From: Promethearchaeia archaeon
GTDB lineage: Archaea; Asgardarchaeota; Lokiarchaeia; Sigyniarchaeales; SOKP01
DNA: 11,205 nucleotides
Assembly (NCBI GenBank): GCA_046483985.1
Contig: JAWOCD010000105.1
Location: 1 to 11,205 of the forward strand
Direction: 5' to 3'
Below are positions 1,171 to 5,024 of this stretch, one piece after another. The position numbers and the translations under genes were made by a program. The notes below the pieces were generated by a model. The model ran no database searches. It was not told where the DNA came from and worked only from the letters and a program-made list of their open reading frames with translations. Position 1 is the stretch's first letter, and every line of letters begins with the position of its first letter.

Positions 1171-2199
1171 CTATTTATTTATCATATAGAGCCGCTTTGC
1201 AATGCTCATGAAAGCCTCATCAATATTATCGCCACGTAACGCGGATGTTTCAAAATAATTAAGATTAAGTCTATTGGCCAACTGGATTGCTTCGGTCTTA
1301 TCCACTTCTCTCTGATCTGTAAGATCTAATTTATTTCCCAAAACATAGCCCACTATTTCCTCCTCATTAGAAAGATTAGCTTTTACATCTTCGTACCATT
1401 TTCGGATATTTTTAAAACTTTCGCGATTAGTTAGATCAAAGACGAGGAATATTCCTTTCGAGCCGGAATAGAAGTCCTTTCTCACGTTATGGAACTTTTC
1501 TTGGCCAGCTACATCCCATATGACAAGCTGAGCAATAACATTATTAAATGTCACCTCTTTCTTTGTGACACTTACTCCTAACGTAGGAAGATATGATCTT
1601 CTAAAAGCTTTATTTGTAAAGTATAAAACGGTGGACGTTTTGCCCACCATTGGGTCACCAATTAAAATTATCTTAAATTGATATGTCGTCTTCTTTTCTT
1701 CTGGAAATACAGTGGTCTCGGCTGGTTCATTATATTCCTCTGAACGTAGTTCATTAAATAACTCATTAATACTATTTATTAAATCTTTGAACACTAAGTT
1801 AATACTTTCGTCTTGAGCCTCTACTTCTTCCAACTTGGTAATTTTTTTAGCTGCTTCATTAAACAAATATTCCAAATCCTTCATATACTTATAGAAAATA
1901 ATATCATACGCTTCATCAAATAAAAGAGTTAATGCAGCATTGCCTACCGAGCCACGCTTCTCTGGATCTTCCCATTGAAGATATTTTATGAGCGCTTTTT
2001 GATTAAGGGAAGGAAAAGGAAGAATAGTAAGAGATTTGGGGATCATGCCTTGCTCCGAAGTTAAGATCGTGATTGTCTTAATAGAAACGTGTAAAACTGT
2101 ATCTTCTTTCAAAGTAGAGGGAATAAAAAGTTTCGGTTCTGGACCGACTTCCTCGTTTAAAATTGTATAAATTAAACCATTAATTATTTTTTCAGACAT
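1171..2199 (-). CDS. Rab-like small GTPase with N-terminal longin/uDENN-like domain
   Basis: aa 173-342 carry G1 GDPMVGKTS, G2 PTLG, G3 WDVAGQE, G4 NKLD, G5 ETSAL and RabF-like segments (QLVIW, FYSGS, LVFDLT). aa 1-155 carry EEVGPEP and DPEKRG, motifs typical of FLCN/SMCR8-type longin domains. AGGGGG lies about 10 nt upstream of the ATG. There is no C-terminal Cys. Confidence 0.9.
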   Translation of the reverse strand: MSEKIINGLIYTILNEEVGPEPKLFIPSTLKEDTVLHVSIKTITILTSEQGMIPKSLTILPFPSLNQKALIKYLQWEDPEKRGSVGNAALTLLFDEAYDIIFYKYMKDLEYLFNEAAKKITKLEEVEAQDESINLVFKDLINSINELFNELRSEEYNEPAETTVFPEEKKTTYQFKIILIGDPMVGKTSTVLYFTNKAFRRSYLPTLGVSVTKKEVTFNNVIAQLVIWDVAGQEKFHNVRKDFYSGSKGIFLVFDLTNRESFKNIRKWYEDVKANLSNEEEIVGYVLGNKLDLTDQREVDKTEAIQLANRLNLNYFETSALRGDNIDEAFMSIAKRLYMINK

Positions 2200-2516: not shown

Positions 2517-5024
2517 ATGGAAATTCTAATAGAAATATTGCTCCGAATTCTTCGATTTTTGTTTTATCCTACCATTGTTGGTGTAGTTATTTGCATGGTC
2601 GGAGTAGTTATTTATTTCCTCCTACCATGGATATTTAGAAAGTTCGTATCTCCTAAACTCAACGCGACATATGAATATGATTCTAACGATTTTAAAGACG
2701 GGAACCCTGTAGTAGAAGAGGAACTGACACCTCAAATAAATAGACCTCGGATTGAGATTAATAAAGAAACTGGAATTTATTCAATTACGTTTGGAGAGGT
2801 TCGCAATTTATTGGAAGGAATCGTAGAGGTACGGTGTAACGGCACAAATTATACTACCCACAAATCATTAGGAAGGAAAAAGAAAGCCTTGAGAATTAGA
2901 GAAGTAAATGAATCGGAGGGCTCTGATAAACTTGGAAAGTTCAAGCAAACTAAAATTCTCTATGATTTAGAGGGAGAAACTCCCGAGATTATCGCACTAA
3001 TAAATGATTATATTAATAAAAATTATATTACCTTTGAATTAAAGTTTCCAGAAAATTTAAAGGGGACAGCCACAGGAGAATTCGAGAAATTGATTACAAA
3101 GTTTCCTTCATTTTTAAATGAAAGCCCCAATATCAATATATTTACCTACAGAGATTCCGTGTTTGCTTATCCAAATGATGAAATAAATTCAAATTTATTT
3201 AATTTCTTCAGTAAGTCGAAGGCCACATCATCTCCAGTGCTATTTTACGATGACGAATTAAATTGTTTTATCGTATCACCTTTAGAGAGATTTCTAAATA
3301 GTGCTATTGCCCAAGAAGGTGAACGAATTAACTGTGGATTTCAAGGAGAGATTCAAAAAATTCCCGAGAATTATACCCAGAAATTTATTCTCATGTTTGG
3401 TAAGGGTATTAATAAACCGATGGAAAAACTCGGCGATATTTTGCTTAAATACCATGATTCCGAACGGAAAAGCTCCTATGCTAACATTGCGGTATCACAT
3501 TTAAGTTATTGGACGGATAACGGCGCATATTATTACTATCGAACAAAAGACGATATGAACTATGAAGAGACTATGGTTCAAATAAAAAACTATTTTGATG
3601 AACAAAATATCCCCCTTCAATCCTATAATTTTGATTCTTGGTGGTATTTAAAATATCAGAGCACATTCAGTAAAGTTCTCTCTACTTTATTGAAACCATT
3701 GTATCGGGTATTAGGAGGAGGACTTTTTGGCAATATTTTGCGATGGGAGACGGATCCAGCTCAGTTTACAACCGATTTGGAGACCTTTCATAAAGAGCGA
3801 TTTCAAAAGCCGATTATCGCCCATTCACGACGGTGGGACGCCCGCTCCCCCTATTTAGATAAGTTCGAGTTTGAAACCGATGGAGATCATGCCGTGCCCC
3901 TTAATTTTAAGTTTTGGGATTGGTTAATGAAGTTTGCAAAAAGAAGTGGAATTGATGTATATGAACAAGATTGGTTGAAAACCCAAGTGAATAGCGTTTC
4001 CGTTTTAAGAGAAGATATCACAGCTGCTGGGACTTGGTTAAAAAATATGGCAGAAGCCGCAAATAAGAACAATGTGGATATTTTTTACTGCATGGAAACG
4101 CCGGGAATGATCCTCTATAGCATAAAGCACCCCAATATCACAATTACTCGCAGTTCTGGAGATTATAACCATAGATGGCCTCCCACTTATCGATATGTGC
4201 ATTGTTCTTTGACAAATATCCTTTTAAATGCAGTAGGCTTGAATTCTCACCAAGATTGTTATAGAACAAAGTATGGACTCTTGAGTGAGCATTATCCCGA
4301 GTTTATGACTATTGTTGAGAATTTGACCGCTGGATTGGTCTGTCCGAGCGATAAAGAAGATGATGTGGATTGGGAATTATTACAAAAAACGTGTCGGCGA
4401 GATGGTTTATTATATAAACCCGATAAGGCAATTACCGCAAATGACTTAATGTTTAAAAAGCACAGGAAATATTATATTTGCGATACTTCTACAGAAAGGA
4501 GAGATATATCTTGGAAATATATCTTAGTTATGAATTTATGGCCGAAACGGGTAAAAGAAACCCATTTCTCACCGAAAGAACTCGGTTATGGAGATGAAGA
4601 GCAAATTCTTTATAACTTTCTAAATGGGCAAGTGTTTAAAGTAAACAAAGATGATAAAATTCCAGTAGGGAGGCTCAATAAATATGAATTCCGCTATTAT
4701 ATAATGGCTCCCCTCACCAATTCAGGAATGGCACTAATTGGATGCCCCGATAAATACGTGACTTGTTCGAAAAAACAATTTCCAGAAGTTAAATGGAATG
4801 AAAACTCTCTGACATTTTCTATTGAGGATCTGAAAGGAGCAGAAACAACCGTTTATGTTTATTCTCCCGTAAAACCCTCTCATATTAGAATCGTCAATGG
4901 AGAGAATTTAGCATCAGAGCAAACAGTAGATACAAGTAGTTACATCGGTGCAACAAAAATCGTGAAACTTAATCTCACTTTTACTGATTCTACTTATAAG
5001 ACAATTAAAATTAAGAAAAAATAA
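2517..5024 (+). CDS. Membrane-anchored glycoside hydrolase, clan GH-D-like (distantly Sip1/raffinose synthase GH36-related)
   Basis: N-terminal TM segment at about aa 14-39. Motif order matches Sip1-type enzymes: YWTDNGAYY, NFDSWWY, GIDVYEQDW (candidate nucleophile D485), FYCM, RSSGDY (candidate acid/base D549), VCPSDK..DWELL...DGLLYKP, LIGCPDKY. Confidence 0.7.
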   Translation: MEILIEILLRILRFLFYPTIVGVVICMVGVVIYFLLPWIFRKFVSPKLNATYEYDSNDFKDGNPVVEEELTPQINRPRIEINKETGIYSITFGEVRNLLEGIVEVRCNGTNYTTHKSLGRKKKALRIREVNESEGSDKLGKFKQTKILYDLEGETPEIIALINDYINKNYITFELKFPENLKGTATGEFEKLITKFPSFLNESPNINIFTYRDSVFAYPNDEINSNLFNFFSKSKATSSPVLFYDDELNCFIVSPLERFLNSAIAQEGERINCGFQGEIQKIPENYTQKFILMFGKGINKPMEKLGDILLKYHDSERKSSYANIAVSHLSYWTDNGAYYYYRTKDDMNYEETMVQIKNYFDEQNIPLQSYNFDSWWYLKYQSTFSKVLSTLLKPLYRVLGGGLFGNILRWETDPAQFTTDLETFHKERFQKPIIAHSRRWDARSPYLDKFEFETDGDHAVPLNFKFWDWLMKFAKRSGIDVYEQDWLKTQVNSVSVLREDITAAGTWLKNMAEAANKNNVDIFYCMETPGMILYSIKHPNITITRSSGDYNHRWPPTYRYVHCSLTNILLNAVGLNSHQDCYRTKYGLLSEHYPEFMTIVENLTAGLVCPSDKEDDVDWELLQKTCRRDGLLYKPDKAITANDLMFKKHRKYYICDTSTERRDISWKYILVMNLWPKRVKETHFSPKELGYGDEEQILYNFLNGQVFKVNKDDKIPVGRLNKYEFRYYIMAPLTNSGMALIGCPDKYVTCSKKQFPEVKWNENSLTFSIEDLKGAETTVYVYSPVKPSHIRIVNGENLASEQTVDTSSYIGATKIVKLNLTFTDSTYKTIKIKKK

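Follow-up and report, generated by a model that had tools for sequence, protein, structure and literature searches.

The window analysed here is a stretch of 11,205 nt from a Promethearchaeia archaeon of the Sigyniarchaeales (assembly GCA_046483985.1, contig JAWOCD010000105.1), and our subject is one of its genes, which encodes a 342-aa protein, P0001, with a longin domain at its N terminus and a small GTPase at its C terminus. According to its translation and its structural models, P0001 carries both domains in one chain and so has the layout of an Asgard longin-GTPase fusion. The original prediction, made from the sequence, proposed that this longin retains the arginine finger of a GAP (GTPase-activating protein), and that the fused GTPase is its likely substrate. 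The two N-terminal peptides that it quoted are present in P0001 (GLIYTILNEEVGPEPKLFIP, aa 8-27; YLQWEDPEKRGSVGNAALTLLF, aa 73-94), as is the motif D78-P-E-K-R82-G83, whose Arg codon, CGT, lies at 1954-1956 as had been claimed. The full-length AlphaFold2 (AF2) model, built with the family alignment, reached a predicted local distance difference test score (pLDDT) of 86.2 and a predicted template modeling score (pTM) of 0.66. P0001 is a two-domain Asgard protein of Lokiarchaeial type, composed of a GAP-class longin, a flexible linker and a complete Rab-like G domain (Table 1).

Table 1. The P0001 gene and its domains and motifs in the window
Feature	Coordinates	Strand	Basis and remarks
Whole gene, longin-Rab fusion protein P0001, 342 aa	1171..2199	-	Stop codon included; open reading frame translation; same architecture in 95 homologues
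Longin core, aa 1-105	1885..2199	-	AF2 models and fold searches
GP motif G19-P20, start of strand b2	2140..2145	-	Invariant; same position as the GP motif of PMC12290439
R82-G83, b4-b5 loop, candidate arginine finger	1951..1956	-	Invariant; aligned to FLCN R164; loop as in bioRxiv 10.1101/2020.04.16.045708 (Tang et al.)
Helical hairpin, aa 106-157, completing the longin domain	1729..1884	-	AF2 models; aligned with 8yqg to about residue 153
Flexible linker, aa 158-171 (~14 residues)	1687..1728	-	AF2; pLDDT <50 at 162-168
Rab-like G domain, aa 172-342, no C-terminal prenylation Cys	1174..1686	-	Pfam, PDB sequence search, AF2 model
P-loop GDPMVGKT, aa 181-188	1636..1659	-	Translation and family alignment
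G3 motif DVAGQ, aa 229-233, with catalytic Gln Q233	1501..1515	-	Translation; Q kept in 125 of 133 members with intact GP and RG

A longin domain joined to a Rab-like G domain

The C-terminal domain is matched by the Pfam family Ras (E 3.9e-49, aa 176-337), and also by Arf (5.8e-15) and Gtr1_RagA (1e-7). Its nearest solved relatives are Rab10, Rab1 and Rab8 (E ~1e-37 to 1e-34), together with a Thorarchaeota Rab (8e-32). The motifs G1-G5 are complete (GDPMVGKT, T206, DVAGQ, NKLD at 289-292 and TSA at 318-320), and the catalytic Gln of DVAGQ, Q233, is encoded at 1501-1503, in agreement with the intact G domain that had been predicted. P0001 ends in ...RLYMINK, contains no Cys at all and lacks the C-terminal Cys prenylation motif of eukaryotic Rabs; because this motif is absent, we call the domain Rab-like rather than a bona fide eukaryotic-type Rab. 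Other Asgard Rabs are likewise without it (PMC10933270).

The AF2 model of the N-terminal domain (pLDDT 86.9, pTM 0.82) runs through strands b1 (6-15) and b2 (19-26), helix a1 (32-48), strands b3 (58-62), b4 (67-77) and b5 (85-95), helix a2 (96-104) and two further helices, a3 and a4, which is the topology of a longin domain (bbabbbaa). In this model the GP motif starts b2, and R82 lies within the loop (78-84) that joins b4 to b5. With the model as query, longin domains occupied the top ranks of two PDB fold searches, Foldseek and VIA, the second being a fold comparison independent of the first. In Foldseek, a Lokiarchaeal longin domain ranked first (8yqg, E 3e-7), followed by chains of GATOR1-containing and yeast SEA complexes (E 4.6e-5 to 3e-4), which we take from their chain lengths to be NPRL2/Npr2, the subunit not being named by the tool, and then by Lst4, FLCN-FNIP2 chains, DENND1 and SMCR8/C9orf72. 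VIA matched 8yqg at Z 19.2 (root-mean-square deviation 2.1 over 144 residues), Lst4 at Z 13.2, C9orf72-SMCR8 and a chain of the FLCN-FNIP2 complex 6nzd at Z 12.7 each, a chain of the SEA complex 8adl at Z 11.5, a chain of the FLCN-FNIP2 complex 6ulg at Z 11.2 and a GATOR1 chain of 8fw5 at Z 11.2 with 19% identity, whereas DENND1A, TRAPP, VAMP7, sedlin and the adaptor sigma/mu subunits reached Z 10.1 at most. The GAP-class longins (Lst4, FLCN, FNIP2, SMCR8/C9orf72, NPRL2/Npr2) therefore span Z 11.1-13.2 versus 10.1 or less for the non-GAP longins, a modest margin. A shape search of the ESM-Atlas returned SMCR8, NPRL2, C9orf72 and a Heimdall cluster with 23% PF11704 (Folliculin), all at template modeling scores of 0.67-0.79. 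A search for PF06218 (NPR2) across the source genome gave no match. Judged by its model, the N-terminal domain is a longin whose nearest eukaryotic relatives are GAP-class longins, by that modest margin over other longins, and the assignment to the FLCN/SMCR8/NPRL2 class in the original prediction stands.

Correspondence of R82 with the arginine finger of FLCN

In eukaryotic GAP longins, the bL4-bL5 loop of the longin carries the finger (R164 in FLCN, R147 in SMCR8), and NPRL2 R78 belongs to the same class as SMCR8 R147; C9orf72-SMCR8 stimulates Rab8a and Rab11a in vitro in an R147-dependent manner, while the SMCR8 longin by itself is inactive (bioRxiv 10.1101/2020.04.16.045708). According to the main text of PMC12290439 (Traffic 2025), a GP motif at the start of b2, beside the finger, is specific to GAP-class longins, and the GP motif and the Arg are absent from the longins of FNIP2, NPRL3, TRAPP, adaptin and DENND proteins. 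The same text, which reports GP and the arginine finger in FLCN/SMCR8-type longins of Asgard archaea, leaves it open with which GTPases they work.

Because direct HMMER searches failed to reach the eukaryotic proteins, we built a profile bridge in three steps. First, Pfam Folliculin was searched over 201 genomes of the phylum, and proteins above the curated cut-off were found in 21 of them; these Asgard longins all contain GP and a D/P-x-x-A-R-G-G motif. Second, the family profile of P0001 aligns to these longins at 13.5-54 bits, pairing GP with GP, K41 with K and RG with ARG, and hhalign relates the two families with 99.4% probability (E 4.5e-21), laying WEDPEKRGSV of P0001 on IPDEKARGGE. Third, a profile composed of the Pfam-Folliculin-positive Asgard longins and two source-genome paralogues matches human folliculin (chain 6ulg_L, native numbering, 579 aa) with E 0.003. 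The source-genome paralogue on contig C126 scores 19.9 bits against PF11704, for which the cut-off is 23.3, and phmmer with two source-genome paralogues found nothing relevant. The aligned FLCN segment, 141-176, includes FFIKDSLARGFQR; counting from 141, its Arg is residue 164 and its Asp is residue 160. The FLCN peptide that the original prediction cited, IKDSLARGFQR, is consequently real, and its Arg is R164. By these chained alignments, from the family to the Asgard longins to human FLCN, R82 corresponds to FLCN R164 and D78 to D160, with the identical D-x3-R-G spacing that had been claimed.

Conservation singles out the same residues. A word-indexed search with aa 1-165 returned 95 proteins, nearly all 341-353 aa long with the same two-domain layout; their sources bear the names Promethearchaeota, Lokiarchaeota or one of a few further Asgard labels, and their NCBI annotation is merely 'Rab family GTPase'. 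Across 51 orthologues with 42-85% full-length identity to P0001, the invariant columns of the N-terminal domain are G19, P20, K41, P61, P63, K68, R82, G83, F94, D99, I101-Y105 and F113. An exhaustive profile search yielded 208 cluster representatives at 50% identity, which sort into longin-Rab (~345 aa), longin-GTPase-roadblock (~470-520 aa) and roadblock-longin (~287 aa) proteins and, as a fourth group, short longins that stand free. GP and RG are retained across all four. When three architectures are aligned (longin-Rab, longin-Arf/Rag-like-roadblock and roadblock-longin), the sole invariant columns are G19, P20, R82 and G83, with K41 invariant or nearly so. Being invariant both in the orthologues and across architectures, the two motifs are not a product of chance, and R82 has the conservation across Asgard homologues that the original prediction called for. 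Among 159 full-length longin-Rab members, 133 have both GP and RG, 14 have neither, 6 have GP only and 6 have RG only; the catalytic Gln accompanies the two motifs in most cases (Table 1).

K41, on helix a1, is thus conserved like GP and RG over all three architectures; it is not among the motifs that a term search finds in PMC12290439, and it may lie in the catalytic pocket or in a dimer interface.

A candidate self-GAP and its alternatives

We propose, giving it a little under an even chance, that the longin of P0001 is a built-in GAP for the family's own Rab-like G domain, which would make the protein a candidate self-GAP. The longin domains would pair, either with a second copy or with the neighboring paralogue, as they do in eukaryotic GAP longins. 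The longin pair would then be a platform that docks a Rab-like G domain of the same family, whether its own or the partner's, and R82 would enter the nucleotide pocket beside Q233, accelerating GTP hydrolysis. The outcome would be a switch complete in itself, whose off-timer is built in and presumably regulated. A predicted ESMFold2 complex of two longins, one G domain, GTP and Mg scored a median of 0.49, compared with 0.00 for the best control. The tool rates this result as weak support: of 80 solved complexes 58 attained its mark, as did 2 of 110 mismatched pairs, and scores of 0.60 or less comprised 7 of the 80 solved complexes and both passing mismatches. The ESMFold2 runs concur in at least 76% of contacts, with partner pLDDT of at least 85. 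In the source genome, the same GP- and RG-bearing longin is also fused to Arf/Rag-like GTPases, a second independent joining of longin and GTPase.

An active arginine-finger longin could also serve as a GAP in trans for some other GTPase, such as an Arf/Rag-like or a free Rab-like protein of the genome, with the fused Rab-like domain acting as its regulator or localizer. Such an arrangement, which we judge improbable, would resemble the gating of FLCN on RagC by the nucleotide state of RagA, or a Rab GAP cascade. It accords with known biology, since all eukaryotic GAPs of the longin class work in trans and the nucleotide state of a second GTPase governs FLCN. (Activation of FLCN as a GAP for RagC is addressed in bioRxiv 10.1101/2022.06.28.498039.) The source genome also holds ~60 small GTPase open reading frames (ORFs) and, on contig C87, a free-standing longin with GP and RG that must act in trans because it is free-standing. 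However, the most economical candidate for the substrate is the fusion partner, longins of this type have been fused independently to two GTPase classes, and the fused G domain, in its predicted docking on the longin pair, scored above all controls, though weakly. The neighborhoods of three homologues further hold no conserved operon partner, and no conserved GTPase gene, beyond the paralogue, and otherwise differ from one another.

The paralogues themselves bear on how a self-GAP might be assembled. Searching with the N-domain profile at E <=1e-15, we found matches in every one of the 40 genomes sampled from the window's GTDB family (2-4 per genome), in 3 of 3 genomes of a sister family, there only as the ~470-aa form, and in none of 157 other sampled genomes. 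Two copies lie ~0.15-3.3 kb apart in 12 genomes and one metagenome locus, and each of these 13 pairs consists of one W-type copy (W-x-D-x-x-R-R-G) and one R/K-type copy (R/K-x-D-x-x-x-R-G-G). Because such adjacent pairs of the two types recur, they suggest heterodimers. P0001 is W-type. Its R-type paralogue in the source genome (352 aa; contig C72:3470-4528, locus L002:1501-2559, + strand) has lost GP (KDANVF) and R-G (DECSEN) but its G domain is intact (GDAAVGKT, DLSGQ); this copy may partner P0001 in a non-catalytic role. A division of every adjacent pair into one catalytic and one dead copy is excluded, as GP and RG are intact in both copies of 10 of the 13 pairs and the other 3 have Lys for Arg in the second copy; full degeneration is seen only in the source genome's partner.

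These pairs allow a more elaborate version of the proposal, which we regard as somewhat unlikely: the longin-Rab proteins would be obligate pairs of two ancient paralogue types (W and R/K), usually adjacent, whose longins form an FLCN-FNIP-like platform, whose Rab-like domains act like a RagA-RagC-type dimer, and in which R82 fires the partner's hydrolysis. In the source genome, where the partner is without GP and RG, the pair would be asymmetric like FLCN-FNIP2. If this version is true, the pair, encoded by one or two genes, is a prototype of the entire eukaryotic longin-GAP/Rag module and operates on a Rab-like switch.

Pairing would also be expected if the longin had no catalytic role, and were instead a dimerization scaffold or a platform for the Rab-like domain resembling a GEF (guanine nucleotide exchange factor), as are roadblocks for Rag dimers and the longins of TRAPP, Mon1-Ccz1 and the DENN GEFs. 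GP and RG would then owe their conservation to folding or to the dimer interface. Most platforms built of longin or roadblock domains are indeed GEFs or scaffolds (PMC10933270), the closest solved relative, 8yqg, is dimeric and without RG, and family members lacking GP and RG persist with intact G domains. We nonetheless consider a non-catalytic longin unlikely: GP and Arg are confined to GAP-class longins in the main text of PMC12290439, R82 aligns exactly with the catalytic R164 of FLCN, and folding alone hardly accounts for an exposed loop Arg that is invariant over three architectures.

Several results weigh against the longin of P0001 being a GAP of the FLCN class that acts on its own G domain. 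The Pfam scan found no family above threshold in the N-terminal 165 aa of P0001, and PF11704 matched only 2 of the 51 orthologues, with a best E of 0.015, below threshold. Direct HMMER searches with family profiles against PDB sequences recovered no eukaryotic GAP longin, only 8yqg, coiled-coil noise and a weak match to the GP region of SMCR8 (E 0.96), so the link to FLCN is transitive. The ESMFold2 pass may reflect memory because similar complexes have already been solved, and the placement of R82 at the gamma-phosphate is our inference. A GAP tethered permanently to its substrate would hold the switch off unless docking were regulated. The members without GP and RG retain an intact G domain with its Gln, and the G domain is therefore independent of the finger. 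On the tree, the joint loss of GP and RG goes in the expected direction, with too few independent events for significance. A coupling between Pro183 of the P-loop (the Ras G12 position) and GP/RG appeared in the raw counts (122/133 versus 10/26); we dropped it because the independent-pairs test on the tree was not significant (median p ~0.6) and because free-standing Rab-like ORFs of the source genome also have Pro at that position.

Relation to known systems and to other proteins of the genome

Longins fused to GTPases in Asgard archaea have been described before. In Lokiarchaeota, Arf-like GTPases are the fusion partners of five longins (Klinger 2016, in the summary of PMC4917890), longin-Rag fusions and FLCN/NPRL2-like longins were reported by Liu et al. 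(bioRxiv 10.1101/2020.10.19.343400), and in MK-D1 26 of 74 GTPases are combined with roadblock or longin domains (Tran 2024, PMC10933270). P0001 has the same order as these fusions, longin then small GTPase, and belongs to the same superfamily as the longin-GTPase-roadblock proteins, but the published fusions stress Arf-like and Rag-like G domains whereas that of P0001 is clearly Rab-like. The term 'arginine finger' does not occur in PMC10933270. With the Asgard FLCN/SMCR8-type longins of PMC12290439, P0001 shares GP and the Arg, and by hhalign its longin is homologous to Asgard longins that pass Pfam Folliculin and have the same GP and ARG; the main text of that paper makes no mention of fusions, and in P0001 the longin is covalently joined to a Rab-like domain. 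The original prediction had claimed novelty for an arginine finger retained in a fusion. This was too strong, since Asgard longin-GTPase fusions and the GP motif with the Arg finger in Asgard FLCN-type longins are each already published; what appears to be unstated in the literature that we searched is their conjunction, a fused longin that keeps the finger and has a Rab-like fusion partner. New in this work is the occurrence of the longin-Rab family in all 40 sampled genomes of the window's GTDB family, often as adjacent pairs of two paralogue types.

Among the closest eukaryotic systems is FLCN within FLCN-FNIP2, a GAP for RagC/D (PDB 6NZD, 6ULG, 8DHB; Lst7-Lst4 in yeast), with which P0001 shares the longin fold, GP at b2 and D-x3-R-G on the b4-b5 loop. 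Unlike FLCN, which acts in trans on Rag, P0001 has no DENN domain and its longin is fused to a Rab-like G domain; its sequence link to FLCN is transitive, and it is a candidate GAP. SMCR8-C9orf72 and NPRL2-NPRL3 (in GATOR1) are structural neighbors of the N-domain model and, unlike P0001, large multidomain heterodimers. The closest solved structure is 8YQG, the longin domain of a Lokiarchaeal Roadblock-Longin protein (profile E 1.1e-22), which has the GP motif and is dimeric but differs from P0001 in having EP-EK for R-G, in lying C-terminal to a roadblock domain and in having no G domain. For Lokiarchaeal longin, Rag-like GTPase and roadblock proteins there are the recent crystal structures 8yqg, 9m28, 8yl2 and 9jq8, which are unpublished or unindexed.

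The homology is solid and the proposed mechanism is plausible. By Rosetta-stone logic, the fusions answer the question that the main text of PMC12290439 leaves open, namely which GTPases belong to the Asgard longins with GP and the Arg finger: in this family, longins of that class are joined to a Rab-like domain, and in sister families to Arf/Rag-like domains. A soluble protein of 342 aa that holds both a candidate GAP and its candidate substrate is also an unusually simple test object. If the chemistry of arginine-finger longin GAPs predates eukaryotes, the FLCN, GATOR1 and C9orf72-SMCR8 regulators of lysosomal signaling trace to a self-contained archaeal switch.

In the window, an 835-aa ORF at 2517-5024 (+ strand) has no Pfam match at E <=0.1; an 821-aa gene, likewise without a Pfam match, stands beside the gene of the closest homologue (locus L021), on the same strand there and divergent in the window. 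The R-type paralogue on C72 is followed by a nitroreductase gene, as is the second copy of a tandem pair at locus L023. Just downstream of this paralogue (C72:4637-4840, + strand), a 73-aa fragment with an in-frame TAA matches longin profile positions 17-84 and is probably what remains of a third copy. In one salt-lake metatranscriptome, two 151-nt contigs match exactly inside the P0001 gene (1348-1498 and 1578-1728) and no contig matches the flanking 3 kb exactly; they offer at most a weak hint of transcription and habitat, because RNA libraries can contain DNA.

Other longins are dispersed through the source genome. Two are longin-Arf/Rag-like GTPase-roadblock proteins, of ~476 aa (C126:94361-94828; L003:574-2001, - strand) and ~503 aa (C96; L006:424-1935, - strand), the first with GP and ADEKARG and the second with GP; orthologues of the C126 protein in two genomes of the same family pass the Pfam Folliculin cut-off. 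Two more stand free: a 212-aa longin with GP and ARGG intact (C87:13116-13244; L008:1285-1923, + strand) and a 152-aa longin in which both motifs are degenerate (SKP and KYWG; C32, L005:1483-1941, + strand). In further Rab-like ORFs of 300-535 aa, on C24, C37, C60, C123, C6 and C51, the GP/RG longin profile leaves N-terminal extensions of 130-190 aa unmatched, and these extensions may be other types of domain fused to Rab-like GTPases.

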